Under the pieces are notes generated by a model. It was not told where the DNA came from. It worked only from the letters and a program-made list of their open reading frames with translations, and ran no database searches. A DNA stretch of 60,360 bases, the filler included, from Hausera hauseri (Eukaryota): NCBI GenBank assembly GCA_046269625.1. It is 12 parts of 12 records of this genome, joined end to end, with 100 filler letters (N's around TTAATTAATTAA, not from the genome) between each part and the next. Parts side by side here need not be neighbours in the genome. Positions count along the whole stretch, not along the records: positions 32,368 to 37,301 come from JBJURY010387146.1; 11 more parts are not named here. One strand, 5' to 3'. Below are positions 691 through 60,071 of this stretch, piece after piece (the stretch's first letter is position 1; every line of letters starts with the position of its first letter). A program made the position numbers and the translations under genes.

Positions 691-897
691 ATGGACATTA
701 TTGTATTCAGTGTGTAAATATTTCATTGTTTGTATGTGTTATATTAATAAATATTTGTACACACTTCTTTGTCTTCTGTTTTCTCATAGTATGCATTTAA
801 ATGTTATCAAATTTTGAGACATTTTATTTTACTTACACATGTGACACTTACACAGGGGTATTTATATCAACTTTGTATAATTTAAACAAATTGGAAC

Positions 898-8500: not shown

Positions 8501-9064
8501 AACGATAGAGATCAGTCGTTGGCTATTTTGACAGCTACCGCTAAATTTAATGATGTTACTATCGAGTACAAACATGAGAAGAAACCACAGGCACCTCACA
8601 TTAGCCAGTGTGTCATAACAGTTGACGGTAAAGAAATCGGACGCAGTGAAGCTCGTGATTATTTGGTTGCTAAACGACAAGCAGCCGAGAGAGTGGTGAT
8701 GGATTTAAGAAAAGGAAACCCGACCGTTGCTCTTCGATTAGACCAAGCAAAATTCATACCAAAATCGGATTTAAAGTTCATAGATGACAACAAAGAAGCG
8801 ACACTTCAAGAATGTCTAACAAAATATTCAACGTCAGACGATGATGTTCCATTGAAATTTGGAATTGATTTCTCGAATGATGAGAGATCTACTTTGAATT
8901 CTTTGTTATCTCAAATGGACAATATGTCGTTCAAAAGTGATAATAACGTGACATTTGTGTTCAAGAAATTCCCGATATCTATCATGAAGAAAAGATTGTT
9001 AGATCGCGGATATTGTTCCCAATATCAGTTGGTAAATAGAGGTAACGATAACAAGTCTTTGTAA
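5563..9064 (+). CDS. NKRF (NF-kappaB repressing factor)-like protein: S/Y/G/Q-rich low-complexity N-terminus, dsRBD-like domains, degenerate R3H
   Basis: The C-terminus resembles NKRF as recalled: 'ILTATAKFNDVTIEYK' and 'AKRQAAERVVMDLRKGNPTV' (dsRBD-like), 'KYSTSDDDVPLKFGIDFSNDER...RLLDRGYCSQYQLV' (R3H and tail). Probable model: exon 1 ATG ACA (5563-5568), GT..AG intron 5569-5668, exon 2 5669-9064 in frame. Confidence 0.7.
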
Positions 9065-15488: not shown

Positions 15489-16604
15489 GTTCACTAATCT
15501 TTGCGATCTCATTTCTTATAACTTGCATTAGTGAATCCGGTATTTGCAGATTAGTATTAAACTCAACGAATGCATTGTGCATTCTTGCTAACAAAGTTTG
15601 TAGTAGTGTTATCAATGACACATTATCTAAGTAATATTTATCTTCCATTGTTAGTAATCTTCGAACAGCTTCATCATCACTGGCTTTCCTACCCTTCAAC
15701 TGATAAAGTTTCGTTGTTCCTTTTGGTCTGCCGCGGTTTCTCTTATCTGTTTGTATTTGCACTGATATGGGAATATTCACTCCCATTTCCATTTGTTGAC
15801 CGTCATGCTGATGTTCGATTTCTTGTGTTTCTTTTCGCCTAACATCTTTGATAATTTCTTCAATTATTTCCTGTTCAGACTGTCTTTAAGTAATACACAC
15901 AGGATTATATCAGTTTTCCCAGATATGTACTTTATATAAAGTTTCATAATCCATCAACCTTTGTCCATATAAGCGTAACTCTAATTCTCCTTGAGGCTAG
16001 TTTATTTCATTAATTTTATGTTTTAATACAGCTATTGTATCCAACGATTTCATCCTCAAAATATGAAGGTACTAGTTGTACTGTTGGAGTATTACCATTA
16101 CTTTTATTATTCTCACTCTATCAGCGTACCGGTAAATTACATATTGCACGACATTTTGATAATGACTTGTGCCAGCAGCATACAATAGTAACAGGCCCAG
16201 TAAATTAGCAAATTGTTCATGGCCAATTGTTGGCGGCAGTAACATGGACAGGTCTTGTCTAAATCGTGTGCCATCGATTAATTCCTGGTTGGCATAAGAT
16301 GATATTTTCCGAACTATTTCTACGCCATCCTGGTCTAATTCCACAGGTGAAGATTCATAACTTGGCGATTTTTCCTTTGTTTTCTTTTTTCTTATTCTTT
16401 TTAACTTCGCCTTGGGTTCGCTGTCTCCGCTTGACTTACTCTTTCACTTCCAGAATGTAAGGCCAGTTCCGGTGTCTTCAGTTTCTCTTCTTGTATCAAG
16501 GGTTTATCCTTTTTCTTGACAGTTTTCTTTTCAATATCCGATTCTGATGTAGGGGTCTCTTTAAGCTTTCCAACAGTAGCTATGATTAAACTTCCATCGT
16601 TCAC
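15489..16604 (-). pseudogene. Post-gag extension of unknown function with an AT-hook-like motif
   Basis: Colinear broken ORFs 16401..16604, 16072..16344 and 15489..15792, the last containing 'KRNRGRPKG'. Confidence 0.45.
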
Positions 16605-16661
16605 TTTCTTTCTTCTCTCGCAAATTTGTTGCTCCTTTAATACAAGGTATAACTGTTTTAA

Positions 16662-17700
16662 TTAGGCAATTTTATCCTCATCTTCCATTGTGTTGGTTTT
16701 ACTTTCTTTTAATTTAGATCTGATCTTTTGTTGTAATTTTTCAATTGTTTCTTCAGGCTCTGTATCTGTAGTTTCATGTTCATTATCCGTGTCAGATATA
16801 TTACCCACTATATCAACATTCTTCTTCTTTTGACTTGACTGTCCTTGATTAGGGCAAGTACGAGCCATATGTCCATATTTCTGACATGCGAAACATAATT
16901 GCTGTCCGTACTGATTGATCGCTGGCTTCCTCATTGCAGATTTTTGGGGTTGGTCTTGTTGCCACGTAACCTTCTTCTGCTGTTGTCACATTTGATTCTG
17001 AATTTTATAGAACTTTTTTTGAAAATTTTTCTTTGACTGACAGTTTTTCACCTTTTTATCATCAGTTTTGGGAGGCTTTTTAGTATTTTCTAATCTTTCA
17101 TAGTTTAATTCTATCTTCCTAGCCTTACTAACAGCTTCTTTATATGTGTTCGGATCTGCCACAATAATATAATTTTGTATTTCCTTGGTAACTTCATAGC
17201 AAAACTGAGCCAGGAGGGCGTCTTTTCTTATATCATCATCTGCATAGGCTCTCTGGGCCAACTTCTGAAGGGCATATGCATACTCCTGCACGCTTTCACT
17301 TTTCCTCTAACGTCGCCTGTTGAACTCTCCAATTCAACCTTTTTCTGATGGGTCTACTAAGAGTCTTTCTTCCACGGAGTCTTTAAGGCTAGCCCAATCA
17401 ACTTTATCATCCTCCGAAAGCTGAGCATAAGCACTGAGTGCTATTCTTTTAAGGTGTAAGGGAAGACGTTGCATCCTAAGCTCGTCTGACCATGCGAAGC
17501 TGTGTGAGTACATTTGATATTGCATCAAAAACTCACTATAATCTTGGTCCGATTTTCTTTCAAACTTATCCATCGGGAGGACCATTGTACCGGTTGTATT
17601 TGAACCAGTTTCTATTCCAGAGCTAGACATTGAGTTTCTTTCTATATTTGTGTTTGGTTCAACCAAAGGACTTTCGTCTGATTCAGAACTACTCCTTGCT
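16662..17700 (-). pseudogene. Ty3/Gypsy gag (capsid plus CCHC zinc knuckle), frameshifted
   Basis: 'WSDELRMQRLPLHLKRIALSAYAQL', 'VQEYAYALQKLAQRAY', 'LLAQFCYEV', 'CFACQKYGHMARTC'. Confidence 0.9.
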
Positions 17701-17768
17701 GAATCAGTGCGTGAAGTTGCAATATTAGTGTTAACTCTACTTCGAGTGTTATACGCCAGTGTGCCTCA

Positions 17769-20023: not shown

Positions 20024-20430
20024 CAAATGAGTCATTTTCGTGCCTACACTGTAATTCAGAGACGTTTCAATGAGTGCTTTGATACTGTATAGACTGGTGT
20101 TGCCTACGATTTTGACGCTGTTTAGAGTCAGTGAAGCCTCCTGGAACAGTGTGAGAAAAAAGTAATTAGTCGGTGTGACAGTGTCTGTTTCAGCGAGAAC
20201 TGTTGATGCATCTTTTTAACAATGACTTTTACATAAAGTAGGGTATCGTTCAAATCCAGGTATTTATTGTCCGATGCCATAATTTTGAATTGAATCTCAA
20301 TGTTATCATCCGTTAAACCAATTCAACGTGTTAGATTTCTTCAAATGCCGCAATGTCAAAAACAACTTGTGGCGCACCTTTGTCAAATATACACAATTCA
20401 GATTTTGCAGAAGCCACTTGTCTGCCAATC
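20024..20430 (-). pseudogene. Maverick/Polinton major capsid protein (PY), N-terminal part
   Basis: 'AKSELCIF', 'YLDLNDTLLYVK', 'TPTNYFF-TLFQEASLTLN', 'YSIKALIETSLNY...THL'. Confidence 0.75.
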
Positions 20431-20431
20431 A

Positions 20432-20750
20432 ATCGAAAATCGTACGACGACGACGCTTGTTTATAGCTGATGAGCTGGATGGTGCTCTACGGTGTTTTCT
20501 CAAGCCACTGCTAGCGAATTGTTTTTTGACCGATTCAACGACTTCCGGTGCAGCGCTTTTTATTTGTTTTCATATAGTACGTCCTGCGCTGTTTTTCCTG
20601 CCACAACACCGATACGCTTTAACACCGGAAATGCTAAACGTGCCAATTTACGCAACCATCCAGAGCCATACTGTCTACCAACGAAATACGGCATTTCACC
20701 GCCTTGCTGGGATTTACTGTAAATGGAAACGATTTCAGAATAAATTATGT
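20432..20750 (-). pseudogene. Maverick PW-like small basic core protein
   Basis: 'QQGGEMPYFVGRQYGSGWLRKLARLAFPVLK...KRRRRTIFD', one internal stop. Lies between penton and major capsid genes. Confidence 0.6.
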
Positions 20751-21630
20751 TGTTGGATTCGACAGAAATGGAGAGTTAGACTGGTTGTGGTATCGTACCA
20801 AAATTCAATAAGGTAGTTCGCGTCACATCGGATATTCACTTCAACATGGTTCATAGATGTAGATGCCACAGGTAAGTACATTGGATTATCGAGCTTGACA
20901 GTGACATTGTCGCCAGCAGTATACTTGCTGCTTTCCGGATAAATTACACGGAGTAGCGATACACATACTTCACCGACCAAAACCAGTTCGGTGACGTTTA
21001 CGTAAATGTACATTTGACTTATTCTAGTTTTCAGTTTGGGTTTAAGTTTTGCAACATGTGCTGCCGTCGTCTTTGCCTCAAACCGCTGTTTTTCACAACC
21101 CAATACCATGGCCAAAGCTTTATCTAATGAAATGTCGACAATATTCTTAGCCAGTACAAATTTAATGTACCCATTTGCATCTGATTCTAAAACTACAAAT
21201 ATCTTGTACTTTTGATTGGAAGTGTTGACAGAAGTGTGCTACAGATTCGCAATAGACATTGTCTCCAATCGATACGGATGATGTTGATACCCTTTCTATT
21301 GTATAGGTAAATTTTATCGTTGTCTATGGAGCAACTGCATATTCACTTTTAATGTCTGTAACTTTGTACTCTAAATTTTTGACTCCAAATTTCGGCCCCA
21401 TCTCAGAGGACTCAAATGTAACAGTAATTTTAAAATCTGCCATAAATTGTAAGTTGATCTAAAATAAAAACACCGATCTTGCCGTGTGAACCTTAGTTTG
21501 CTTTGGTCGTGCAAATGGCCCATTCTCCAACTATTATTTTATTGTTACTAAGTGTCAGAGGACAAAAATGTGTTTTGGTTTCAGTAACAATCTTGTACGT
21601 TATTTTCATACTAGCTTTCAATGTCACCGG
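20735..21630 (-). pseudogene. Maverick minor capsid/penton (PX), copy 2
   Basis: 'MYIYVNVTELVLVGEVCVSLLRVI...PMYLPV...HVEVNIRCDANYLIEF..TSLTLHFCR'. Confidence 0.75.
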
Positions 21631-21816
21631 TGCGTAGGGAAAGTTAAATTCCGTCAGTGCAACCTCTCATCTTCCAGATAAATCCAAAGGATTGTTCCAA
21701 TCTACAACGTATTCATTGGCAGAATTGTTCGGACGGGTCGTCAGACAATTGTTGCTCGGCAAAACCATGTAAATACTCATTCACAATGATGTCAATAATG
21801 ATTATGCATTTGCTTA

Positions 21817-22620
21817 TTATCGACGATGTCGGAAATGTAACGTCAAATGTGTCGTTGACCCGAACAGAAATTTAATGGGTTCCCTAAATTCATCAAGCAT
21901 ATACACGGAAATACTGTGCACAATATTGTGAGACAATGATAAGTAAATTTGTCTGAGCATATTAAGGCGAACAGTTTCACCCGATGTTTCTTACGTGTCA
22001 GAATACAGTTCGATAGAAGCCAGTAGTTGTTTACGTTTTACACCAACGAGTACGGATTCGGTTAAGTCCGTTAAAATATTGATTCTATGAAATGCTCCAT
22101 AGACTTGCGGTTTGTATTTGGCAACAATAGATTGTCCAACAATGTTTTGATACAATTCGCGTTTTGAAAAACCCAGATTCCGAGCCACTAATTCATCAAA
22201 GGCAAAATATGTTACATTGTCATGTAATGTAAGCGAAATATGACCATCTGCGTTTATTTCACGTGTCTTTGCAGCCAATGCAGCCGTTTTCTTGACGGAT
22301 TCACACAATTCCTGTTCCGTTTCCATTAATAAATCGTGTGGTATAATGAGCGGAAGACTGTTTCTGACTTAATTCACTTTACTATAATATCAGATTCCGC
22401 ATTGGATAAATGGTCCAATATTTCATCATTTATAACATGTCCACCTAGCCGTAGACTTTTTGATTGTAAACTGATTGAAAGCCCCATGCCTGAGCATTAG
22501 CTATAGATTTAAGCTGCATTTCCATGGGATTTCGATGTATTAGTTTCATACGGTAGTTTGAAAAATAAAAATAAACCGGGAAATGTTGTCGCGAATAATT
22601 GCGAAGAGCATATCGGTTAT
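21817..22620 (-). pseudogene. Maverick minor capsid/penton (PX), copy 1
   Basis: 'INILTDLTESVLVGVKRKQLLASI...QIYLSL...SISVYMLDEFREPIKF..THLTLHFRHRR*', with one internal stop at 21991. Confidence 0.7.
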
Positions 22621-22676
22621 TGTATCAGATCGGTTATTGTCGGATTGTTAGTTGTTCTGTTGTTACATGATAAGTA

Positions 22677-23162
22677 ATGGCGACAGGATTTATAGATATT
22701 GAAGCTTTCCAAGATGATAATGCCCGATACATAAAGGAATTATGTATTAAGGACGTCGGTAACATTTTCAAACCACTTGTGTACGTATTCAAGCCCGGTA
22801 CTGAGTGGAATGACCTGACAGAGAAGGCGAAATTTACAAATTGATTTCTCTTCCGACATTGTCATGGACTTCATTGGTATGAAGGCGATTCAATTTTCTG
22901 TGCGACGTGTATTATGGGCGAGACTTGTAATCGTTTTGACATTGAAAATGCAATCTTTTACATTAAAGATCAAATTTACGGACAAAAGTTTACACAACTA
23001 CATTCACAGTTTTCCGAGTTTCGAATGACGACGTATTCAACATCGAACAGCTCCCTTGCGATGGTACCTGACAATATTATATGTCCGTATCGTGATCATG
23101 GACCGCATTGTGTTTACAATAAATGTCTACGACTTTCTATTGACAATATTTCATGCAAATAA
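22677..23162 (+). pseudogene. Maverick-associated DEDD-type 3'-5' exonuclease-like protein
   Basis: 'MATGFIDIEAFQ...IKEL...YVFKPGTEWNDL...HCHGLHWYEG...CPYRDHGPHC', one premature TGA at ~22842. Confidence 0.6.
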
Positions 23163-23294
23163 ATAAGTGTATTTCTTTCTTTCTGTAAATAAGGTCCGTG
23201 ACATGTTTATCCGTATTGGTCAGTTGAATATTTTAAAAACAATAAATACGGGTAAGTTGTAATAATAATCATCATCCTGGAAAGAGTCAATCAA

Positions 23295-23740
23295 TTGAAG
23301 CAATTGCAAAATTTTGATGGATTACCAATTTCAGACTTGGTACGATGGTGGCAAGTACTTGATAGTAATTTGGTTGCGAGAGCAGCAGTTGATTTTGGAT
23401 TTAAAGATTCAGCGTCAATAGCATTGATGACAGCAACAGATTGTAGCTCTATAGAAAATCTAGTTATTTTGTCAAATCAAATGTACATTCACCGATTGTA
23501 TGATACAAATTACTTTAATACTGTTAAAAAGGTACGCGGTGAATTAAAGAACTTGAAAGAAAAAATAATAGACAAAGTATGAAGCTGTCAGTTTATGTGT
23601 GTACCATGTAAACAAAGAAAAGTGTATACGTTATTATTAATGTGCGGCCATCTCCTTTTTTATCAAATATGTTCCACCAAAGTAATCCACCAAAGTTCAG
23701 AATATAAATGTGCTATAATGGAAATTGTACACATTTAATA
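23295..23740 (+). pseudogene. Unknown ORF followed by a degenerate IAP/C3HC4-type RING
   Basis: ORF 23295..23582, then 'CVPCKQRKVYTLLLMCGHLLFYQIC...YKCAI'. Confidence 0.45.
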
Positions 23741-24039
23741 CGAATGACTTCAGTAACGGAATGAAACAGTGTCATAGGCTTCAATGACGTGGATGTAATT
23801 TTAACATGTATGTATCATTGTGATATAAGACAATACTCACAAAGTAAATGTCTATCGTTTACAATGAAAATAAACCGGTATGAACAAATTTGATATAAAT
23901 ATGGATGCAGTTTTATTTCACGTTTGTCTTCTTTAAACAACGTCTTTCAAAAACAATTCAGCAGGTGACAGTTCCGCGAGTCTCTTAAAAAGCCAAGATA
24001 CAGCAAAAATTCGCCAAAAATTCCCTGCCACTGACTCAA

Positions 24040-24327
24040 ATGGTCAAAATTAAACCGGTGAAATATGATCTATTGGTGAAAAAGATCAACGACGATGACT
24101 TGGTTACAATGGAAGACACAAATAAAAAAGTTGACAGTGATTTGGTGTTAACTAACGGTGTCCAATATACGTCGTCGATTTTTCTCAAAAGAAATATGTC
24201 ACAAATTGTCAGTTCACATGGCGCAGAAACAGCAGAGGCGGTTTTGCGACTGGAAAGAGCTAAAGGTCATCTAACGTTGAAGTTGAAAGGATACAAGGAT
24301 CTGCACGGAGTTAAATCACAAATATAA
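24040..24327 (+). CDS. Hypothetical Maverick accessory protein
   Basis: 95-aa ATG-initiated ORF between capsid genes and pPolB. No recognised motif. Confidence 0.35.
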   Translation: MVKIKPVKYDLLVKKINDDDLVTMEDTNKKVDSDLVLTNGVQYTSSIFLKRNMSQIVSSHGAETAEAVLRLERAKGHLTLKLKGYKDLHGVKSQI

Positions 24328-24574
24328 AAGGTGGGACAGTTTACATTGATTTTACTTACTTTGTTTTTGATTTTAGCTTATAATTAATGAATTTTCTTAA
24401 TTTGTTTTTCATATTGTTTTTCGTCACATTATGTTAAATATATAAATATATATATATAGATAAATTAAATGATAATAAAATAAAAGGCAAAAGAAACGAA
24501 CAATACATATTATTTGTACAAAACACACAGATGAAAATGAATTGTCATAGTAAATGGGTCACTTTGATATGTTT

Positions 24575-26400
24575 ATATCATCAACACTGAATTCATGTGT
24601 GTGCGTGCTTTATTCCAAATGCCAATGTCCGTACGCCCAACTTTTATTTTGCCCCACCCACTTATGCTTATCATCATTGCACGATAAAGCGACTTTTGCA
24701 TTGGTCACCGTATACAACTGGTACTCAATTGATCGGATGATCGTTTGAGATACAACAACATTTGATTGTCCTTCTTCTTCATAGATACGGCGATAATCAC
24801 AGTGGTTTATTTTTATCTAGGCCAACTGAACTCCTTTGACGCCCATTTTCGGCCCACCATCAGTTAAAAGGATATAACATTTTGGCCGCAGAAATAGCCA
24901 TTCCCGATTCGAAGCCGACTTTCACTTTCATCCTTGAAGCAGCCGATTTTGTTTGTGATGAAGTTGCTGTACAATGGACGATTCTGTGGGTAATTGGAAG
25001 TGTCCAGTAATCCGTCTGCCATCATTTTCCGCAGCAGTTTTTCGCGATTGATGTTTTCCATTTCCAAGAAAAAACTATCTGTGTCACAAGCAATTATATT
25101 GATCCTACATCCGCCGCATCCGCCGACAAACATTTGCCGGTATCGTGCCAAATTGCGATGCTGCAGCTCATACATACGCAACTTTCTCACATCCAATACC
25201 AATTGAAATATGTAACTTGGCCAGTCCAGTACGTCCTATTCCCTGTTTAAAAGTACGGCAACAAATCCATCGGCAATGTGCATTGATCGCCTAAACTGCC
25301 CTTGCTCGTGTATGTGACCAACCGCTTTTCGCTATAACAAAGACGTGCATTGAGCAGCTTTATCATATTCTATACCGTCTTTCCGTAGCGAGAATTGTTT
25401 TTTAGTTTGTAATGGTCTTTTTCAAACTTCGCACAAGCTGCAGCTCGTTTCTCCGAATTCCGACTGATGTACGGCTTGAATATCAGAGCCTGTGCGAATC
25501 GGATTGCGTGATGCAGCTATGTGACGTGTACACCCAACTGCATGTAAAATTTCAAAATACGCCAATAAACTATGTAGTTTTGGTTAGGTTCATTTGTCAT
25601 AAGCAGCTTTTTCACCTTCGAGTCCGCTGGACATTGGCTAATTGGTGCAACCGACAGTTCATCCAGAAAGTCATGCAGCTCATCTGGTACCACGAGATAG
25701 ACCTCCATCAGGTACATGATTGAGCTGTTTTCTGCCGTATCTGCTCTCGGCAGATTTTCCAGTATTGCGTCCAAGTCCTGCTTGTCAACCATCAATTTGA
25801 ATGAACCGTACGATAAGGTTTTGAAAGCTGCCAGCCGTATAGATTATTAATTTCAATATACAAAAGTGATGTAGTATTATCACTGGTTACGTAATGCTTT
25901 TTGACAAATGGCATGTCGCCACGAATACCAACATCAAACATTCTGTACATTTCCGGGTCTTGCAACATCTCAATATCCCGATATAGTGACATCAGAGCTG
26001 ATGCCCAACTCATTTCGGGTATTGAGTAAAAGTTGAGTGTCTCGAGTCTATCTTCTGCCAACACTTTAGCTCGAAATGTATGAAACACATCGGCTAACAG
26101 GTAAACATCCTATTTTAGATAGTGAAGCATGTACTCCAACCGGTTTCTACATCCAAGCTCTGTCCAAAACAACTGCGCTCTGTAATATTCGTCTTCTGTG
26201 ATACCGGGCCATTGCGGTGGTAATTCGTCTGTCATCTGAAGCAGCTCGTACGAAATCACAAAGTTATACGGTAATATACCTTTGCTACGTGCAATATGTA
26301 CAGGGAACTGAGTCAATGTTAGAGGCATATCTGGCAAGGCATTTATCAGCTTTGACAGAGATTCATTGAGAACTAATATTTGAGAATGATCAAAGAGTTC
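24575..26400 (-). pseudogene. Maverick/Polinton protein-primed DNA polymerase B (heavily frameshifted)
   Basis: 'SKGILPY', 'YLK*DVYLLADVF', 'GIRGD', 'LLYIEINNLYGW', 'KLKNNSRYGK', 'CDTDSFF', 'IGCFKDE', 'NDDK'. Confidence 0.9.
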
Positions 26401-26943
26401 CAAATAAAATTTGGTTTGATAAATAAGCGGTAATAAGATCAAGATATGTTGATAAATTCTTAAAAAATGATATAACATTATATCACACCGAAAATGAAGG
26501 AAAATCAGAATTTGCAGAAATATTTATTAGAACCTTGAAACATAAAATGTGGAAACATTTTATTGCTCAAGAAAATCAAAAATGGTCTAATAAATTATTA
26601 CAAAAGATTGTCCAAGAATATAATAATACAATTTATTAAAGCATAAAAGAGACACCATTTAATGCTTCTAAAAATCCAAAATTAGTTAAAGATATTAATT
26701 AAGTAAATAATTTACAAAATTGAGACTAGGCTAATAAGAAACCAAAGTTCAAAATAGGTGATTAAGTAAGAATTTATAAATACAAAAGCGATTTGAAAGG
26801 GGATACACCCATTCTTTTACAAAAGAAGTATTTATTCTTGATAATATGTTATATATTGCCAATAAATTAGGAACTAAGAGACTTAAACGAAGAAAAAATA
26901 TTAGTAACCTTTTATAGCGAAGAATTTTTGAAGAGTGAGTTTA
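26400..26943 (+). pseudogene. Maverick-type retroviral-like integrase, C-terminal part
   Basis: 'YHTENEGKSEFAEIFIRTLKHKMWKHF', 'IVQEYNNTIY*SIKETP', 'KPKFKIGD*VRI', 'FYSEE'. Confidence 0.8.
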
Positions 26944-26980
26944 ACTTACCTTAGGCACTAAATTATTTACATGAAAACAG

Positions 26981-28149: not shown

Positions 28150-29111
28150 ACCTTATCGGAGGCCACACTGAGAGTTATGAAGTCGCCAATCCATATCAGA
28201 GATTTATGTGGCATGATAACACTGAACTAATGCGGTACTGCGTAAAGAAATATTCCGCGTATCGTAAAAGTGTTTCGCCAGTTCTTTGTATTTCTTTGTT
28301 TCCAGCTTGTATTATCAAATAACATCTTCGTGATATAAGATATCATGAACTCCGGCTATTCGTCTGAGGGGCACCTAAAGTGGCGGGTCAGCATTTTTAT
28401 GACGTTGACTCCGATTACCAACTTGTCCGTTAGGATTGTGGATACTTTATAATAAAAGTCCTGTATGTCCAGTTGATTGTTTATGGTTGCTTCCGTTCAT
28501 CCTGTTATATGCGTATCGAAATTATTTATTCTCTCGCTTGGGGTTATGACTGCATAGAAAAGTGTATCTCCATTCATGTTTATAATGGTGCATTCTATTA
28601 TTTGTAATTGATTCGATTGGTCATAGGTCAGGTTTGCTGCGGCTATAACCATGTCGTTCTGATTAATTTCTTGTAATTTTCGATACGGTTTTTCTTCATG
28701 AAGAACATAGTCCGGTTCCGGAAAGTGGAAATGACGTCGTTCCGGTTGCGGGTGCCAGAATTTCTCCTTTTGGATGACTTTGATACCAATCATTATTCGA
28801 TTGGTTAAGGAGCGGATTTTGATGGAGTTGTTATCGAAAAATTTATAATCGATAGTTATTCCATGATCCGGATCCATGTTTATTAAATCGCCATTTATTT
28901 TCGTCTTATAGTTTTTGGTCTTGATTTGAAATTTCCTGATAATATCATATATGTTCAAGCTATGGAAATTTTCCGGGAAAGAAATTAATCCCTGAATTAA
29001 GAAAGAAGTGTCTTTCGTCATCTGCACCAAGACCATAGAACGGTTACTTGCGCTGTACCCTTTAAGATTGTAAGGGATTTTTGTATGATACGCACTAACC
29101 TGGATTGGCAC
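28150..29111 (-). pseudogene. DEDDh exonuclease-fold protein lacking catalytic residues (copy A)
   Basis: 'MVIAAANL...IIECTIINMNGDTLFYAVITPSERINNFDTHITG', continuing after stop/frameshifts as 'LTDKLVIGVN...RRIAGVHDILYHED...KYKELAKHFY'. REX4/ISG20-like pattern. Confidence 0.6.
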
Positions 29112-29179
29112 TTATCAGAAGATTTTTCGCATTTTTATACCAATACATACTTCTTTGTAACGACTATCTGCATTGAGGT

Positions 29180-29805
29180 TTTTATATATTGGTGTGGCCC
29201 ACTATATAACAATAATTACACTTGAGATTTGAGTACCTTAATGCGGGTAAGGTCTACCGTTATCGAATAGACAGATTGTGCCTTATAACAACTAGCTTAA
29301 TCAGTAGTGCTGGTACTCGCTTGCGGTCCTGTGCAAAAGGTTTAACAAAATTCTCGTCTTAACTATGTGATTTTACAGTAGAATTTTAGACCTTATTGTA
29401 GTCTAATCACCCTTATGGGGCAATAAAAAACATTATAAGAATTTTAGAATAACAAATATATTTTTTACAATAATAATAAACACCTTTTTTTCTGGATACA
29501 CCTTCGGTATCGGAATTGAAAATCAAAATCAACTGGTTCAGGAGTTTGTTTCGAAAAAACCAACAAATAATTCTCTACGCTTTTCGAAATCCTGTGAGAA
29601 TGCTTCTCCAAACGTTTCCTTAATTTAACTTCTTGAAATTTCCAATTTTCTTCGCTAAGGAAGCTTCTGAAAACGTCTTCAAAATCACTTTCAAACAACT
29701 CAACAACTTTCAAACAACTCAAATGAAACTCAAATCTTTCATATCTGCTACATGTTTTTATACCAATGCGACTGCGTACGTGACTGATTTAATTTCATAT
29801 TCTTG
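29180..29805 (-). mobile_element. Partial LTR (second, diverged copy)
   Basis: TATAAAA at ~29761. Blocks shared with 29810-30100 and with the sequence preceding the PBS at 45199. Confidence 0.5.
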
Positions 29806-30585
29806 TGTTAGTAGTTGAAGGTGGGCCCTATTCAACACCCAACTATAACAATAATGAAACTCGAATTTAATTTAGTAATTATAAGCAGATAAGTTGTAAC
29901 GTTCTCGTTAGAATGTTTGCACTATTTTATCTTGCGTGTTCTGCGTGCAGTGAATGCGTAAATTACAAAATTTTCGTCCTAACTATGAAGTTTAAATCGA
30001 TTTTAAAACTTAGTGTGGTGCAAGTCCCTCGTAAGGAGTGACGGAAAACTATAAGAGAATTTTACAATACAAATTTATTGACAAATAAAACAATATACCG
30101 GACGATACAGTCGACTTAAATTTTCTACAAAACGTTCAAGTCAATTGAATCTTTTTCGATAAAATTTGGTATCTATGAGCTTCACCGCTAACTCGGTAAC
30201 TGAAATATCGTTTCAAGATTTCTGGAATATAACTGATTATCTGAGCCTTTCCAATAGCTCGATCAATGCCAACTTATCTTCTAACTTGTTTATTCCAACT
30301 GATTTTGTACTGCCTTATATAGTCGGCAGTCATAAGCAATTTCATGCATAAATTTACATTTTATTTTTATAAATTTATTTTTCCGAAATTTCGTACAATA
30401 ATCAACTATTTTCTTTTCCAAATAAATATTTTCATATTTACATATTCACTACAATTTCTCTGATTAATAAAAATTTTCAATTTCTAACGTTAAACATTAG
30501 TTTCGGTTTTAGTTTCGGTTTCGTTTTTCAGTTTCGTTTCAATTTACATATTTACAAATTTACGGTTTACGACCATTCTACAACA
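29806..30585 (-). mobile_element. LTR preceded by polypurine tract
   Basis: Minus strand PPT AGGGAGGAGAAA (30597-30586), then TGTTG...TAACA. Internal TATATAA, TCAGTT and AATAAA. Confidence 0.65.
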
Positions 30586-30991
30586 TTTCTCCTCCCTGAA
30601 CGGCACTCTCGGATGCGCCTACTGCGTCAGTAGAGGTGCCGGGAAATCGGCGTAATCGGTCCATTCGTCCGCGTAAGTCCGCTTCCGAATCCAATTTGTT
30701 CAACGGTGATTGCAAGTCAATATGATAGGACGTAGTGGCCTGTTCGGGTAGTATCTCTACTATCTTCTTATTTTCTCCATTTGAGTAGTATCTTAGCCTG
30801 GTAGCTTCAGCTCTGCATACTGGGCAGGTCGTTTCCCCATTTTTCAGGGTCCACGTCTCTAGGCAGTACCGGCAATATTTGTGACTGCAATCTTTGTTGT
30901 CCAATACCACGAATCCTTGATAGAGATCCGCGTCGCATATGGGACATTCTTTTTTCTCCGCTGCATCAATATCCACAAGGTTTTTGTCCAC
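30578..30991 (-). CDS. RING-HC (C3HC4) finger, probably the C-terminus of a longer disrupted ORF
   Basis: 'CPICDADLYQGFVVLDNKDCSHKYCRYCLETWTLKNGETTCPVCR'. Same frame as ORF 31001..31192 across one TAG. Runs through the PPT into the LTR. Confidence 0.85.
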   Translation of the reverse strand: MDKNLVDIDAAEKKECPICDADLYQGFVVLDNKDCSHKYCRYCLETWTLKNGETTCPVCRAEATRLRYYSNGENKKIVEILPEQATTSYHIDLQSPLNKLDSEADLRGRMDRLRRFPGTSTDAVGASESAVQGGEML

Positions 30992-31000
30992 TTCTATTCT

Positions 31001-32267
31001 CTAAAATACCAGTCCTTTTTTGTCTTGATACAAGTATCCGTACAATCTCTTTTGATTGGAGTCTATCGAGCTTTTTCTCGGATCGTCGGATACTGCGACT
31101 AGGGTCCATTCTACTATTTCTTGTTTGTCCAGATCAGGTATGCCAGTCTTCTTATATTGTCTTTTTAATTGAATTCTAACTTGGGTATCCACGGGAATTG
31201 TTAATCTGTTGGTGCCACGCTTAGACTGAAATATTGGGGCTAAGTATCTGCCAATGTTGGTATCTTCTCTGGCATATCTATTTCCACTGACTATCCTTCT
31301 AGGGACGGTGGATACATAAAATATAGCCTCTTTAATTTTTCCTTTGCTCTAGTACTCGGCCATAGCGAGGATTTTTTTATATTCTTTCACTTGGCCGAAT
31401 TCTGTAACTATAATTGGGGTATCTTCTTCCCAGTTCTTCCGAAGAACATTAACCTTCGTCTTAAGGGATCCGGTTTTGGTAATTTTTATTTGATTTTCGC
31501 TGTTTTCTTTCTTTCTTTCTCGATTTGATATTTCTTTCTGATCGTTTATGGGTTCCTCCGGGATTAGGCTATCTGTCGCTGACCTTTTTTCGCCTATTGG
31601 GCATTTGCTGGTCTTGCTTTTTTTTACTGATGTATTCCAGGAAGGAAGTTTTTGTCTTTTGCCTTTTCGGGTTTTCTGAATTATCGGATTTTATTGTTAC
31701 TTCTCCTTGGGCTTTAATGGTTGATGGTTTCTGTTGGTTTATCGGGACTTCCATTGGGTTATTATGGATTGTTACTCAAAATAGGTTATGTCCTTGGGGT
31801 TCGATCTGCCTATAGCCCAGGTATTCACTAAACCCTTTTCGGAATTTTTGTATCAGTGCCTTGGGGTTATTGTCAGATATCGCATTTTGTATGGGACTTT
31901 TGGGTTTTCATTCGTGATCCCATCGTAACGAGTCATAGATATCTTTTATAAATTTGATCCTTTGACTTGCTGTCATCAGCTTCGGGAATTTGGATCGTTC
32001 GCCATTCATGGCTTCTAGCATCATCTTAAATTGCGATTCGCGCGATGCTAACGGAAGCAGGCAACCTCTTTTCCGCATCAAGGTATTTTCTACTTGGCTC
32101 ACTACTGCTGGGTTTAGGCTCACTTTTCGAATTCCGGCTATGTATTCTTGCCTAATTCCTAGTCGCTCCAGAGCTTCGTGAACTCGGAATGCGGTAACGA
32201 CGTACTTGTATAAGCAATGGCTTATATCTTCTTGGATCTCCAAGAAATCCTTTCCCCTTTCGAGCTG
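31001..32267 (-). pseudogene. DEDDh-fold pseudo-nuclease (copy B, C-terminal half) plus linker and unknown domain
   Basis: 'EIQEDISHCLYKYVVTAFRVHEALERLGIRQEYIAGIRKV' aligns with 'DVVKEMIHWLLGTVVIGLETHKALEMFDIPLNYLAGVIDL' of ORF 33518. Confidence 0.55.
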
Positions 32268-32367: not shown

Positions 32368-32539
32368 GCATATGGCGTGATCGTCACACTTGAGAGTGCT
32401 GTGACTGGGCATATGGCGTGATCGTCACACTTGAGAGTGCTGTGACTGGGCATATGGCGTGATCGCCACACTTGAGAGTGCTGTGACTGGGCATATGGCG
32501 TGATCGTCACACTTGAGAGTGCCGTGACTGGGCATATGG
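32368..32539. repeat. 41-bp minisatellite, at least 4.2 copies
   Basis: Unit gcatatggcgtgatcgtcacacttgagagtgctgtgactgg starts at 32368, 32409, 32450, 32491 and 32532, with no spacers. Confidence 0.95.
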
Positions 32540-33494
32540 TGCTGCAGAGTGAGGGATGCAGGATCTAGTACATGGTCCTTTCATTCCACGGCTCTGTCAA
32601 TCCAAGGACTGGGAGTTGACGTGGATTTTTAGGTTAACAAGATAACGAGGTTGTTGCGCGGGACTCCGGCACCTGTCATTCTGTTACGTCAAGAATTAGG
32701 ATGGAAACATAGACGGTGATAAAGTTGATCGGATGGCATAACATCAATTGACTGTGTCACTGAAGAATATGATGCTAAAGATCCATCAGCTTGAGCCACG
32801 GTAGAAGCAGGTTGTGTTTCTTAACCACTTCCTCGTCGAACACACCGCAAAGATTTATTATCTGGGTTATGCAAGGATTTTAGGCAACGAAATGGCATAC
32901 GTGCTGTTTTGAGGTGCTTGTACAAAGGATACATAGAAAATGGACAAAGAGACATATACTTAAATCCGGGACGGAGACGATACAACAGGAGGAAGAGGAA
33001 GACTGGGTAGAAAACGTTTACATTGTGAGGATGACTGAGTTAAGTGTCCTAACGGGTGATGGGAGGAAATGTTTCTCTGGTAAAAAGAGGCGGGCTGACA
33101 AACATAAACTTGCCGTAAGCAAAACGACTCTTCGGTAGTTTCTGGAACTGGGGAGAGGAGCATATGTGGTAATTTCCTGAATGATGTGATACATATTCCA
33201 TTAGCGCATTCGTTTTCTTGCTGAATTTAGTCATCTTATTTTGTTGTAGTAGCTTACATGTAGCTTACACATAAGACTGACTTCAAAAGAACATGGTACC
33301 TCAAGTCACGTGGTTTCAAAGCACCAATCCAACTCTGCCATCCTGTTTCACTCAGTGGCTTAACGCTGCCGCCATGGCTAAGACTGATGAATGACTACGT
33401 TAGAATTTGTCAACACGTAGTCAAAGAGAAATAAATTTAGATCTGCTGAACTAAACAAGACGATAAATAGTGTCCTATCCTTACAAATAAACAG

Positions 33495-34936
33495 GTTTTA
33501 TCAAATCTGTACTTTACTTGTTTTGTTTTAAAAGTCGACATTGTGTCGCGACTGAAAGTCAGATTTATGCTCGAGTGATATATTCAAAACTATACCCACA
33601 GTATCACGCTGATCAGCTAGATGCCGAAAAGATAATCCTGAACCATGGAATCAAGAGGAGCAGTCATTCCAAGACGCTCTCAAAAACATTTTACAACAAT
33701 ATCCGACGACAAGTTTTACTCAGTCCGAATTTTGAAGTACTAAATGTTGTTCGAATCCCAAATCAGCTTAAACATGAAGTGACTACAAATAGAAACCTCA
33801 GTATTAATACGATTACAGAATCTCATCAGTTCTCCTTGAAACAATTTATGCCAAGAAGTGATGCAATAGAAGGTTTGGTTATACATGTTGCCAGAGGAGC
33901 CCTTTGCTTGAAAACAAAAATTGCACGTCAGTTTGCAAATACCATTATCAATTCCATTTATGAAGAAGAATCGCTGTTTTTAAACACTCCAATGAGTGTG
34001 GATTTGCTCCAGGCCAGACCAATGTTTCTACCACTGGTAATCATGCTAGAGTGGCTGTTACCGGAGAAACATCTTTTTCTTCCGAGACCAATGATACTAG
34101 CAAACAATCCCCCAGATATAGTGGTGCAGGCTGGATCAAACTTTCTTAACACCAATCAAACCAATACGATCAGAATACTAACAGTCTCAAATGGATATAT
34201 GAAGGACAATAGTCCCTTACCTATTCATGTTACAATCACAACTAAAGGAGGAAAAGTATTATATGAGGCCATTGTAGCAAATAGAAAAAAGTTGCACAAT
34301 GCGAATTCGATTCGTCATGGAATTATTCCGGAATATATATCCACTCACGGACAGGATATTTATGATGTCGTGAAAGAAATGATTCATTGGTTGTTGGGCA
34401 CAGTAGTAATAGGATTAGAAACCCATAAGGCGTTGGAAATGTTTGATATACCTTTAAATTATTTGGCAGGAGTCATAGACCTTCTAAAACACGATGAAAT
34501 CACCGGACAAACATTCCAGCAAGTCACGTTAGCGAATGTCAGTAATCTGCTCAAATTGCTCCAGACAAGAAATGGAATGAGCTATGCGCAGGATAATCAT
34601 GGTAAAATGGCTTTAACGTTTGATATCTTTAAAACGGTACAGAATCCATTCAAGGTATTATGGACTCCACCAGATCTAAGTAACAATGTGGTAGACCCGG
34701 GAGAATTATTTTATAACCGGGAAAAGTATTTAGCAGACTTTGCGTGGATATATCATTCAACTGGAGAAAAAATAAACAACAGAGATCAGAAATTAGAAGA
34801 ATTAGACGAATTAAAAACACCATCTTTATCGGACGTGTCTGATGGTATTGCGCATGAAGAAGAAAATCTCCTGAAGGAAGATGTTACGCAGGTAGAAAAA
34901 GATGATATGGAAGAAGTGGATTATACTAACAAGTAA
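33495..34936 (+). CDS. DEDDh exonuclease-fold protein lacking catalytic residues (copy C), LTR-element cargo
   Basis: 'IRILTVSNG...IHVTITTKGGKVLYEAIV...NSIRHGIIPEYI...DIYDVVKEMIHWLLGTVVIGLETHKAL...GVIDL'. The frame opens at the phase-1 acceptor cag|GT (33494/33495). Confidence 0.65.
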
Positions 34937-35058
34937 TTCAGGAATTCATAAAAACTGAATCTACTGCAGTACAAACGGGAAAAACTGACTTCGAGAAATT
35001 TGGCGAGAAAATTCTCAAAGGATTAACTCAAACAGAGACATTTACATTTTCATGTGGA

Positions 35059-35508
35059 TTGTTGATTTATACGAAAAATTTTACTCTCCCACTGGTAATA
35101 GATAAAATTGAAGTTCCCGTTTACATTGATCAATCGATACCGCAGATAACTTTACAGTCGTGGGATAATCTTAACAACGAAGTAATCGGATTTGTTTTCG
35201 AAAATTCAGTAGATAAGAAGACCCTTATTCTTTTCGACAATATCGATAGATTATACAGATTACCCATAAAGATGAATGCAGAATTCAACGCAAAAATCAT
35301 GGTTCAGTTATGCCAGAATTCGTTTATAACCAAACTGAAAATTGATTACAAAGGACGGAAATTGATTTATGTGTTGCTAGTTAAATCAAATAGACCAGTA
35401 TTGATTCCAATCGAGAGAATTCCTAAAGGAAAAAATGCAGATCCAGAACAGTCTTTGACATTCATGATTGAAAATGATATTCGGAACATTGTTGATCTAG
35501 ACTTTTGA
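35059..35508 (+). CDS. Hypothetical protein, possibly a disrupted continuation of the upstream ORF
   Basis: 149-aa open frame ending about 130 bp before the PPT. No recognised motif. Confidence 0.45.
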   Translation: MLIYTKNFTLPLVIDKIEVPVYIDQSIPQITLQSWDNLNNEVIGFVFENSVDKKTLILFDNIDRLYRLPIKMNAEFNAKIMVQLCQNSFITKLKIDYKGRKLIYVLLVKSNRPVLIPIERIPKGKNADPEQSLTFMIENDIRNIVDLDF

Positions 35509-35649
35509 AGTTACTGTGTACATTTAATTGCATGTTACTCATCTTGTGCTTTGTATCCTTCATTTTTATTGCTGTTAGTTGATATGTAAATATTATTATT
35601 TATTTTCGTTTTTCTTTTGTGACGTTAGCACCCCTTAAGGGTCGGGGAA

Positions 35650-36276
35650 TGTTGTGAATGCGGTTAGTACATTGTCTGATCTTACTTTGTAGACAGATGA
35701 CTCAGACTGTACTTTTGAATTTATTTGAAATACGCGCTGCCGCGAAGTTTGAATTTGGGTTGAAATTGAAAATTGCGCACGCGCAAAAGTTAAAATAATA
35801 ATTGACAGCTAAAAAAGGTATAAATAGCTGATACAATTTACAGTTGAACGAACAAAAATTATTTGAACAAAAAAAATTATTTCTAACAAAGTTTTGGAAT
35901 AACAAATTGGATTTGGAGTTTGTTGTCGATAAATTTCTAGATAGAAATTTTTCATTTATTTGTCCTTAAGTAAGCTTAGTATATTTTGTTGGTTTATTTC
36001 TTATTGTGTTAATCAGTTATAAGTTGTATTATTTTTTGATTATTCGAGTCGTACATTTTGTTCATTTGTGTTTGAATATATTTTTGTATTCAGATTCATT
36101 CTTCCCAAAGTAAAATATTAGACTCAATCTGCAGAGAGATTGAAGTCAAGTAAACAAGTTTTCTTTCCATACAATATAGCAATCAGAATCACATACAATT
36201 AATTTGAAATATATCGTTACCCTCAGATTTGAGATTTTATAAGATTTTCTTGTGAGAGGAAATTCTTATAAAAACA
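35650..36276 (+). mobile_element. LTR flanked by PPT (5') and PBS (3')
   Basis: PPT-like AAGGGTCGGGGAA (35637-35649), TGTTG...AAACA termini, TATAAATA at ~35819. Confidence 0.75.
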
Positions 36277-36281
36277 ATATT

Positions 36282-36293
36282 TGGCGCCCGAAC
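36282..36293 (+). promoter_or_regulatory. Primer binding site (tRNA-Lys)
   Basis: TGGCGCCCGAAC, the start of the canonical tRNA-Lys(UUU) PBS. Confidence 0.8.
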
Positions 36294-36867
36294 TCAAGCA
36301 TTTTCATTTTAATCATTGAGTTTTTTCGACGTTTTTTCTCAAGGCATAACCAGCCTGAATTTACCGTCATTATCGGCGAAACGAAAATTCGTTTTCGTAA
36401 CTATCAAACTTTTCTGGATTTCCTAGAAACTCAGAAACGTTCTAATAATATTGTGCTTTTTAAGCAAGCAATTGTAATTGAAAAAAGCGCTTGATTTCTG
36501 GTTCCTCCCCTACATATAATTTGAAACTTTCAACACACGTTGTTAACCTTCAAGGGTTGGGGAAATTGAGTAGTAAGTATAAAATTTTTGCGTTAGAAAA
36601 CAAAAGTAATTAAATTTCTTTTTGACATATATAGACTTCTGACTCCGACAGTCAAGTAGTCGTACAATATAAAATCAGACGATACTTAAATAATAATTAA
36701 TAAATACCAATTGGGAATACATATACATATTAAAGTAGCTAAAGCCAACGATAATCATAAGTCGAAAAACTAGAAGCCAAAGCTTACTTAGAGTTAAGGA
36801 TCAAACAGAATTACTAACTGAAAAAATACCTGTTGTTTTTGTAGAGAAACTTCAAATTAATAAAGAA

Positions 36868-37301
36868 ATGGCTACTAAAGAAAACAATTTAAATGTTTAT
36901 GACTTTAGAAATTTCAAAATCGATGTAGAAAAATTTAATGGACAACCTGATAAGTTGTTAACGTTTTTGAAAGCATATAAATCACAAAGCACCGCATTAG
37001 AAGTTAGTGAAAAAGATCAAATCAGACGTTTGCCTTTATACCTAACAGACATAGCTATAGACGCTTATAACGAGTTAACAGATGCCGAGCGAAAAAATTG
37101 GAACACAATAAGCATAGCAATGATAGACAGATTTCTGCCAACCATGACCCCTCAACAACAATTAATAATTTTCCAGAATAGATTCCAGAAAAATGAATCA
37201 GTTACTCAGTTTGCATACTCTTTGCGACAATTGATTTCCAACTATGTAGAAGCCATAAAATTGGCAAAAATGAGACAAAATGGAAATAATGAAGTCGAAG
37301 A
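36868..37301 (+). CDS. Ty3/Gypsy gag, N-terminal part (cut by contig end)
   Basis: 'VEKFNGQPDKLLTFL...QIRRLPLYLTDIAIDAYNEL...NRFQKNESVTQFAYSL'. Confidence 0.85.
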
Positions 37302-45214: not shown

Positions 45215-45280
45215 AACACCATATTGATAAAACAATTAATAACTTTAAAGCAAAAATCCTTACTTAAGTTTGAAATTCAG

Positions 45281-45582
45281 ATGATGACAGATACGCACCA
45301 CTGCGATGTGAAATATGCTGTGGACTGCTCGGAAGAAATTACGCATTGCTGCGATGCACGCACATTATGTGCGTCAAGTGTGCAGATCGATGGCTATCGA
45401 AGAGCCAAACATGCCCTTTCTGCCGAAGAAAAACAAGTTCATATCAGTGCCGAGGAGCCACAGTGGTGGTAATTCTAGACGATGAAGAAGATGAGGAAGA
45501 TGAGCAAGAAAATGAAATGGAGGAAGATCCGAATGAATTATATGTATTAGGGCCAAATCAACTTGTACAGATGCCCATTTGA
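45281..45582 (+). CDS. RING-HC protein with acidic tail (cassette 1)
   Basis: 'CEICCGLLGRNYALLRCTHIMCVKCADRWLSKSQTCPFCR...DDEEDEEDEQENEMEED'. No ATG before the RING; acceptor ttcag| at 45280. Confidence 0.8.
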
Positions 45583-46030: not shown

Positions 46031-46095
46031 AATTTGTAATAAGAATAAATAAATTGATTATTATACTTAGTGAAATTGGATTTCGTTGATTGTAG

Positions 46096-46508
46096 AAAGA
46101 TGCCCCATCTGTTTGGACAACATAACGGGTGAAAGGACAGTGTTACCATGCGGACACATATACTGTCAACCTTGTATCAATACCTGGCTAGAAGAACAAA
46201 GCAACTGTCCTTGTTGTCGGCGAGCCTGCACCTTTTGCTGGATGTGCCTCAAATTGGTGGCAGATAATCTAGTGGTCCTGTCATGCCGTCACGTATTTTG
46301 CCGACCGTGCATTTTGGAGTACCTGAGTTGTAATCAGTATTGCCCTTACTGTCTAGAAACGGTGGATTTCTATGTTGAGGAGGGAATCATTACCTATTTG
46401 AATATTGACAACCGTCCATCCATAATATTGGTAATTGATGAAGACGATGGCAGTTGGCCAGAAGCGTGGAGAAATCCACAACCTTATACTATATTGGATA
46501 TAGATTAA
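46096..46508 (+). CDS. Tandem double RING-HC protein (cassette 4)
   Basis: 'CPIC..LPCGHIYCQPCINTW..CPCCR' directly followed by 'CWMC..LSCRHVFCRPCI..CPYC'; acceptor ttgtag| at 46095. Confidence 0.85.
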
Positions 46509-46558
46509 AAAATTAAATAAAATTAATTATAGCAAATTGTTTATTTCATTTTCTTAAG

Positions 46559-46866
46559 GTTTACCCCGTACTGTGAATCCATCAACTATACTGAGCCATG
46601 GGTTCCCAGCATCTTGCCAAATCAATGATATAAGCGTATACACAACATACAACCCAAATGGAAATTTCACTCCTGTGGGAACCCAATGCACAATCTGTTT
46701 GAATGGGTATTCATTGGACCCAGTAGAGTTGGTCCCATGTAGGCACCAATTTTGCAGGCAATGTTTAAAAGAATGGTTCTCCATTGGAATTACATGCCCA
46801 GTATGCCGTGCTGACAATAAACTGTTTCGATACAAACATAGTTATTATACCATAAAAAATTTGTAA
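46559..46866 (+). CDS. RING-HC protein (cassette 5)
   Basis: 'CTICLNGYSLDPVELVPCRHQFCRQCLKEWFSIGITCPVCR'. No Met codon in the frame; acceptor ttcttaag| at 46558. Confidence 0.85.
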
Positions 46867-56531: not shown

Positions 56532-56665
56532 TATCGTACAGAACTTTATTTGAACTATGAATGGCATGGTGTTATGTATGACAAAATTACAATATTTACA
56601 TTATTTAAAAATAATATTTGTTCGTAAATTAATATTTTCTGCACAAATTTTATATCAGATTGAAC

Positions 56666-59224: not shown

Positions 59225-59423
59225 TTTGGTGTCTCTGTTTTTTTTAATATATTTTGTGAACAAATTTCTTTTCGACTTTTTTATGCTTTCTTATCCTTAA
59301 CCCTATAATTTCACATGACAACAAGGTTTTCTATAACGCTTCTTTCGATTGTAATAAGAGTTTCATTCCAACGTTATCAGAGGTATACAAACTAGTAAAA
59401 GTATATGGTGTGAAAACCATTGT

Positions 59424-60071
59424 ATGAACAACATCGAAAATTTATTGTTTTCTCCATTGTTTAACGTAATTCACCGAATATTATCACAGGAATCAAAAGG
59501 AAATCTCAAACGAACAATTCATAAACAGTTGTCAACGGAACAGAGTTTACCATGCTCCACGGACCCCTCTGTATTTCTCTATCAAAATAAATGTCATAGG
59601 TGTATTAATACTGCAAATCGTGTAACTAATCTCAATGATCTTACAGTTGCTCAGTTAAAAACCGAATGTCGCATAAGAAATCTTCCCAGATCAGGTAACA
59701 AATGTGCGTTGATTAATACTCTGGAAGAATATAAGGATGAGATCCTAGCTATAGAAAATGCTTGTCCACATATTTTATCTCAATCTCAGTATCAGTCCGA
59801 TAGATCACATAATCCCAAATATCAGCTGAGCGATAGGTCCATAAGTTTACCCGTGGAATGCTATGACAACTCATCTCAAGAAGTTTCAGGATCATTATTA
59901 GCACCAGTCACTGTAAATGTTACATGTATCGGTGGTTCCTTTTCAAATTTGCCAATTACTCCATACTCCATTGTTCTAGGCGAGCCTACAAAGCCTGATA
60001 TTCGAGATATTATTTCTCCAGATTCTCAGTCTACTCAGCTCAATAACACTATTTCATGCGCCGTGTTGTAG
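59424..60071 (+). CDS. SAP-domain protein
   Basis: 'LNDLTVAQLKTECRIRNLPRSGNKCALINTL' fits the SAP consensus. Confidence 0.75.
   Translation: MNNIENLLFSPLFNVIHRILSQESKGNLKRTIHKQLSTEQSLPCSTDPSVFLYQNKCHRCINTANRVTNLNDLTVAQLKTECRIRNLPRSGNKCALINTLEEYKDEILAIENACPHILSQSQYQSDRSHNPKYQLSDRSISLPVECYDNSSQEVSGSLLAPVTVNVTCIGGSFSNLPITPYSIVLGEPTKPDIRDIISPDSQSTQLNNTISCAVL

Follow-up and report, generated by a model that had tools for sequence, protein, structure and literature searches.

The window, the whole stretch of 60,360 nucleotides that was analysed, consists of 12 contigs joined by N spacers, and the gene studied here lies on the contig at 32368-37301. On the plus strand this contig displays a stop-free frame of 481 codons (ORF1; 33491-34936; chance about 3e-16 calculated from base composition), in agreement with the intact ORF of about 480 codons in the original prediction. 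An in-frame TAA (33488-33490) stands directly 5' of the frame and is followed by CAG|GT (CAG at 33492-33494; phase 1), and the first methionine is codon 120 (33848) rather than about 110 codons in, as was originally stated. ORF1 contains three cysteines in total and comprises a beta-rich N-terminal domain (residues about 85-195; 33743-34075), a predicted DEDDh pseudo-exonuclease domain (residues 226-392; 34166-34666) identified from profile and structure matches, and an acidic low-complexity linker seen in the translation (residues about 431-481; 34781-34933). ORF2 (34930-35508; +) lies in a different frame with its start overlapping the end of ORF1, is 192 codons long from stop to stop (chance 6e-7), appears beta-rich and has its first ATG at residue 115. 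It had been described as an ORF of 149 aa; the frame exists, whereas the length of 149 counts from a TTG. Both ORFs end, as foreseen, just before a PPT and an LTR.

The PPT (35637-35649; +) has the palindrome CCCTTAAGGG (35632-35641) just ahead of it and is followed directly by TGTTG at 35650, the start of a 627-bp LTR (35650-36276; +) that runs from TGTT to AACA and contains a TATA-like box at 35819. A PBS, TGGCGCCCGAAC (36282-36293; +), was found 5 nt past the LTR end and matches without a difference the opening 12 nt of the tRNA-Lys3 PBS printed in PMC1084362. A Ty3/Gypsy-type gag then starts at 36868 and is cut by the contig end (36868-37301; +), with a match to Retrotrans_gag (E = 0.001) that falls under the curated cut-off and a BLASTP match (E = 2e-8) to a gag on the contig at 15489-19923. 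The hallmarks of a Ty3/Gypsy LTR retrotransposon (PPT, TG...CA LTR and PBS) are present, and an Rfam search returned nothing at E ≤ 0.1. A motif closely similar to the palindrome and purine tract at 35632-35649 was also observed at 36547-36565 (+) in the 5' leader, the interval between PBS and gag, where it may serve in dimerisation or packaging. A further broken gag that bears a CCHC knuckle lies at 15490-17765 (-) and is followed by unassigned ORFs at 16075-16443 and 15490-15885 in place of a recognisable protease.

Its place before the PPT and LTR marks ORF1 as the probable 3' accessory gene of a Gypsy-type LTR retrotransposon that is present in multiple copies. The env position originally assigned to it holds in so far as it is the last gene before the PPT-LTR, but no pol was found upstream of it on the 4934-nt contig, where PBS and gag come after the LTR; RT and integrase domains in the window lie on contigs other than that of ORF1. 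No second LTR copy was detected within the window, and the single LTR on this contig stands between the 3' end of an element and a 5' start (PBS, gag), a layout equally compatible with a tandem pair sharing one LTR, with the integration of a one-LTR circle and with an assembly join made across the LTR. An identity as env was rejected on the absence of a TM segment and a furin site: neither of these (furin sought as RxK/RR) nor an env cysteine pattern was found in ORF1 or ORF2, the native N-terminus being missing from the window copy, and the maximum 19-residue hydropathy was 1.48 for ORF1 and 1.21 for ORF2. A single-copy host gene unlinked to LTRs was likewise rejected, as none of the homologues seen in context is such a gene.

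Two public runs (X1 and X2) contain the stretch, and their contigs were compared with the window. Summed contig depth in X1, which is not copy number, was 0.4-10.6 over 32368-33522 compared to 106-526 over the ORFs and more than 8000 over gag. This contrast separates a low-copy flank from the repeated element, with the caveat that depth in X2 was 1.75 in the bin at 33358-33522, and the gag is on this evidence likely to be common to far more elements than carry the ORF1 cargo at 80% identity. X1 contigs matched the window over 32510-32871 and 33067-33284 with no differences, and two X1 contigs diverged from the window sequence at 33554. The left flank (32368-33553), which opens at the contig start with tandem copies of a 41-bp unit (32368 to about 32540; about four copies, 98-100% identity; repeat family D3), thus lies outside the shared element, and with it the proposed splice acceptor and the first 21 codons of the frame. 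The acceptor sequence described in the original prediction is present in phase 1 after the in-frame stop; expression starting from it at 33495 was rejected, since it sits in the low-depth flank beside the 33554 junction. The part of ORF1 common to other copies is therefore 33554-34936. A small indel relative to the window was found at the ORF1/ORF2 junction in both of the X1 contigs that span it, which indicates that ORF1 and ORF2 are probably one gene broken in the window copy; ORF2 would be the C-terminal domain or tail of this gene, split off by a frameshift, and a separate second gene of 149 aa was rejected. Read from its sequence, the window copy is dead: it is cut short on the 5' side at 33554 and carries a frameshift near 34930. 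Among the indels listed for 34860-36300 (at least 12), 10 of 12 lay inside the LTR and none within the body of ORF2 (34940-35500), and the loose contig ends that were listed (6 of 51) gave no exact placement of the LTR ends.

Purifying selection on the gene copies is supported by an excess of synonymous changes in both ORFs, as had been proposed for examination across copies. Among the changes listed for ORF1, 13 of 18 were synonymous compared to 21-29% expected (P = 5e-6 to 2e-4; best-supported 40 of 553), and among those listed for ORF2, 13 of 20 were synonymous (P = 3e-5 to 8e-4; best-supported 40 of 109). As the copies are related and the rows were picked for support, these P values overstate independence.

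A phmmer search of 1.84 billion representatives identified three homologues with intact frames, P0001 (660 aa; E = 1.7e-5), P0002 (662 aa) and P0003 (870 aa), each a single-member cluster that is unnamed or 'hypothetical'. P0003 aligned with ORF1 over 311 columns (26% identity; E = 2e-16) and ends in a RING finger, and the tails of P0001 and P0002 are low-complexity. Two further homologues were found on the minus strand of the adjoining contig. Homologue B (30578-32267; -), interrupted by stops and a shift of frame, encodes the C-terminal half of the pseudo-exonuclease (31908-32267) and a basic tail with a RING finger (30578-31690; zf-RING_2, E = 6.3e-9); it has 47% identity to the tail of P0003, of which it is the broken counterpart. 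Homologue C (28318-29111; -), broken by a stop and a frameshift, comprises the N-terminal domain and the pseudo-exonuclease, with 20% identity to ORF1 over 234 columns (BLASTP E = 8e-4). A PPT (30597-30586) and an LTR-like start, TGTTGTAG (30585), follow directly after homologue B (30566-30597; -), and its last codons overlap both. The last eight residues of P0003 are the same as those of homologue B, which the PPT and LTR-like start encode, and P0003 is on this account probably LTR-adjacent too. The LTR-like segment of homologue B resembled the LTR of ORF1 in the first bases only, the remainder aligning no better than shuffles (score 49 compared to 39.7 +/- 5.4). In this genome, an association of the pseudo-exonuclease gene with LTR ends is supported for two different families. 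In the interval that separates homologues B and C, two related 300-bp segments (29750-30050 and 29120-29430; -; local score 101 compared to 29 +/- 4.5 for shuffles) both end in ATTGGTATAAAAA and probably represent fragments of LTRs or promoters from related families.

The alignments show a predicted core of two domains, beta-rich and pseudo-exonuclease, that is fixed throughout the family, with tails that differ (the beta-rich ORF2, a RING finger or low-complexity sequence); no ORF2 counterpart was matched in P0001. Pairwise identity over the core was 17-34%, except for P0001 and P0002 (65%). The N-terminal domain was conserved in all five members covering it, with six invariant columns in the alignment (A5), and its strands were of low confidence in the structural model. 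A cupin-like fold had been suspected for this domain by eye and was dropped, as the A5 profile matched nothing in the PDB below E = 1.2. For ORF2, searches of Pfam, the PDB, PHROG and NCBIfam returned no family, and Atlas matches to beta-propeller-like clusters, with a recognition value below threshold, provide a weak lead. Single-sequence searches with ORF1 (PDB by phmmer, Pfam, PHROGs, NCBIfam) gave nothing useful. Word-based searches returned none of 5408 candidates for ORF1, only P0003 itself among 1936 candidates for its residues 90-425, and none of 8000 candidates for alignment A1, the last being uninformative as it also missed the alignment's own members. No relatives were found in viral contigs or metagenome contigs by locus scans.

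The middle of ORF1 is very probably a dead ISG20/REX4-fold domain carried as cargo of the LTR element. The family profile (A1) matched ISG20L2 in the PDB with E = 1e-6, followed by the PolC exonuclease (4.5e-5), SDN1 (0.003) and ISG20 (0.23); a profile built from the three window copies alone still matched ISG20L2 (E = 7.1e-4), and one from P0001 and P0002 alone placed ISG20L2 first (E = 0.078). An AlphaFold model from a six-row alignment had a mean pLDDT of 41.6, with no residue above 70 and values of 50-61 in parts of the domain; a single-sequence fold of ORF1 (pLDDT 35.1) was unusable. In a Foldseek search of the PDB with the AlphaFold model, ISG20 (E = 1.4e-4) and ISG20L2 (1.9e-4) ranked first, and VIA-align superposed it on ISG20 with Z = 10.3 (rmsd 4.0, 147 residues over ISG20 6-174) compared to 8.3 for DnaQ, with Maelstrom ranking 42nd (Z = 6.2) and RNase D 44th (Z = 6.1). 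The top structure matches were all DEDD proteins, the viral ones included, and the beta1-beta2-beta3-alpha-beta4-alpha-beta5-alpha core of the DEDD (DnaQ-like) fold is present. Identity to ISG20 and ISG20L2 in the structural alignments was 9-14%. ESM features grouped the domain with RNase_T/ISG20 clusters at 0.83-0.84, which is a lead only. Against Pfam RNase_T (PF00929; gathering threshold 24 bits) the window protein had no match and P0001 scored best, with 18.7 bits (E = 0.0027). The REX4/ISG20/DnaQ pattern named in the original prediction was in this way borne out by both profile and fold searches, the fold check that it proposed recovering an ISG20-type DEDDh domain on which the active site could be mapped.

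The motifs reported earlier in place of ExoI and ExoII, ILTVSNG and GLETHKAL, are present at residues 229 (34175) and 308 (34412), and the catalytic acids are absent from them as claimed. With the active-site register taken from the SDN1 and ISG20L2 alignments, the ExoI positions are T231 (34181) and S233 (34187) and the ExoII position is A314 (34430); the ExoIII positions, Q367 (34589) and K372 (34604), come from a weak alignment and were carried over by eye via alignment A3. The ExoI Asp position is occupied by T, A, A, S and A and the ExoI Glu position by S, N, R, K and N, with no acid at either in the five members covering them, and the ExoII Asp position by A, M, K, K and A and additionally M in homologue C, with Asp in none of six. 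These alignments show the ExoI and ExoII acids to be lost in all members covering them. In DEDD catalysis the acids are needed to hold two metals, according to the part of the report available (PMC13659232), and their absence excludes canonical activity on sequence grounds. P0001 and P0002 have Arg or Lys at former catalytic-acid positions and, in the by-eye mapping, Glu at the ExoIII Asp position, and an Asp lies one residue past the ExoIII His position in three members. No acidic residue is common to all members, and no invariant Cys or His column was found in alignments A1, A3 and A6, which argues against a Maelstrom-type site.

Exonuclease folds have been described as LTR-element cargo in bdelloid rotifers, where the retrotransposons Juno and Vesta carry an RNase D-like DEDDy ORF3 with intact invariant residues (DEED), as described in the available part of that study (PMC5408684). 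Like the rotifer ORF3 described there, ORF1 has a DnaQ-like exonuclease fold and is a non-env 3' accessory gene of a Gypsy-type element with no TM segment. Unlike it, ORF1 resembles ISG20/REX4 of the DEDDh type, its ExoI and ExoII acids are gone in all members, and its family has an additional N-terminal domain and swappable tails that include a RING finger. The ISG20, ISG20L2, REXO4 and SDN1 exonucleases, assigned to Pfam RNase_T and cluster F.5 in the accessible portion of PMC3985635, gave the best profile and structure matches across the full domain, and an SLKHL-like motif of these proteins is retained in P0001 and P0002; ORF1 differs from them in having no catalytic residues, in its 9-14% identity, in its score below the Pfam cut-off and in its location in a mobile element. 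A DEDDh or dead exonuclease ORF3 was not reported in the literature searched, which covered titles and abstract openings and excluded most subscription journals, Repbase and supplements, so that the exonuclease-fold cargo known from LTR elements is the active DEDDy form of rotifers and the dead DEDDh version is new within that literature. The ISG20/REX4-type gene would represent a second, independent exonuclease capture beside the RNase D type of rotifers.

Dead DEDD folds that bind RNA are known in the PXL of PML and in Exuperantia (PMC13659232), and Maelstrom and EXD1 are also dead DEDD proteins that kept RNA binding, such proteins acting in piRNA biology (PMC5408684), as stated in the available parts of both papers. 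ORF1 shares with PXL of PML-1, Exuperantia, Maelstrom and EXD1 a DEDD fold without catalytic acids, and PML-1 also couples a RING to a pseudo-exonuclease, as P0003 does (PMC13659232, PMC5408684). RNA binding is proven for those proteins in the parts of the reports available, whereas the ORF1 family is known from sequence and matches them at the level of the superfamily fold. Neither a SAM-like nor an ECHC module was seen in the ORF1 family, and the Maelstrom tetrad was not found.

The mechanism that we favour for ORF1, with a probability of about 0.45, is that of a non-cutting RNA-binding adaptor. An ancestral element would have captured a REX4/ISG20-type gene whose catalysis was lost early, after which the dead domain may grip single-stranded RNA ends, most plausibly those of the element's own transcript, and protect them against small-RNA trimming or 3' exonucleases of the host, and the tail may recruit or ubiquitinate host factors. 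The RNA adaptor was ranked first because loss of the acids left RNA binding intact in PXL, Exuperantia, Maelstrom and EXD1, and because two members carry Arg or Lys where the metal site used to be. Counts of K+R compared to D+E in the domain of the four full members were 11/11, 12/18, 15/8 and 17/11, the domain being neutral in the window protein, acidic in P0003 and basic in two of four. The neutral window domain and the acidic P0003 count against an RNA adaptor, and as charge is not uniformly basic, the proposed nucleic-acid binding continues to draw on the example of the other pseudo-exonucleases; the low confidence of the model (mean pLDDT 41.6) leaves surface patches unreadable.

The main rival, which is possible although we consider it doubtful, is that the protein does not contact RNA and acts as a protein-binding decoy or ligase adaptor that mimics a host DEDD-fold factor. 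At a similarly low probability, the factors mimicked could be REX4/ISG20L2, PAN2/CAF1, ERI1 or Maelstrom/EXD1, whose partners would be sequestered or ubiquitinated, resulting in weaker silencing of the element. A decoy would be consistent with the RING fused to the core in P0003 and homologue B, with the RING ORFs downstream of integrase on the contig at 41554-47203 and with a domain that is neutral or acidic in two of four members. Planarian Burro elements provide a parallel, being giant Gypsy elements with RING, BIR and BCL2-like cargo that was read as host manipulation (PMC6431247). The ORF1 family resembles Burro in combining a Gypsy element with RING cargo; in the available part of that report most Burro cargo sits within a single giant polyprotein and no DEDD domain is named for it (PMC6431247). 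Mimicry would, however, require conserved surface, and little is conserved given the 9-14% identity to ISG20 and ISG20L2 and the 20-26% identity between members; in addition, the window's own subfamily has no RING.

A structural or transport role, in which the protein is particle-associated or involved in trafficking and the fold serves only as a scaffold unrelated to RNA ends or defence, was considered unlikely. Poxvirus F12 offers an analogy for such a role. An N-terminal domain conserved as much as the nuclease fold and the interchangeable tails would suit a scaffold; the lack of a TM segment or furin site in ORF1 and ORF2 makes an envelope role in particular unlikely. Still less probable is an atypical nuclease that cuts RNA through a rearranged active site, a possibility put forward for Maelstrom, which has an ECHC zinc site and no DEDD (PMC7968707). 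The acid retained near ExoIII in P0001 and P0002 and the recurrent Asp just past the ExoIII His position are in keeping with residual cleavage, whereas the three cysteines of ORF1, the missing invariant Cys or His and the missing common acid all speak against it. A functionless decaying passenger, that is, a captured host exonuclease fragment whose site was lost by drift, would explain why all three window copies are broken, and was largely refuted by the synonymous excess in both ORFs, the intact 660, 662 and 870 aa frames of the three outside members and the two-domain core retained at 20-26% identity between members.

To our knowledge, few element-encoded factors that counter RNA decay or piRNA silencing are known, and exonuclease cargo of LTR elements has so far been interpreted as an enzyme for trimming the RNA of the element. 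A fold that is selected while its ExoI and ExoII acids are lost suggests that binding, and not cutting, can be the selected function, and the natural RING-fused and RING-free versions offer a small testable domain for a retrotransposon counter to RNA decay or piRNA silencing. In a broader scenario, which we regard as rather unlikely, an ancient and undescribed Gypsy clade of animals may have made a captured ISG20/REX4-type RNA exonuclease into an inactive targeting device that disarms host RNA surveillance and whose exchangeable effector tails include a RING E3 ligase. If true, it would be a transposon-made counterpart of the RING-plus-pseudo-exonuclease design of PML, with the ISG20/REX4 family being antiviral in animals.

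The other contigs of the window are AT-rich animal DNA with CBP/p300, SANBR, RT, integrase and RING domains. The contig at 41554-47203 (+) was read as another element that carries host-manipulation cargo downstream of pol: fragments of Integrase_H2C2 (E = 4.4e-18) are followed by three RING ORFs (45274-45579; 46074-46505, with two RINGs; 46558-46863) and by an ORF truncated at the contig end, the final residues of which look BIR-like by eye. An uninterrupted, strongly diverged CBP/p300 frame of 863 codons (56633-59224; +; bromodomain, RING, PHD, HAT, ZZ and TAZ) is followed by a SAP-domain ORF (59358-60071), and a second long uninterrupted frame of 1139 codons (5645-9064; +) has long Q/G/R/Y-rich regions and a weak dsrm match (E = 0.0053). 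Fragments at 11-814 (+) and 20024-26980 resemble, by eye, a Maverick/Polinton DNA polymerase B and its companion genes, with no Pfam match for 11-577. The contig at 37402-41453 has a higher GC content (0.43) and CA microsatellites, unlike its neighbours, and could derive from another organism present in the sample.
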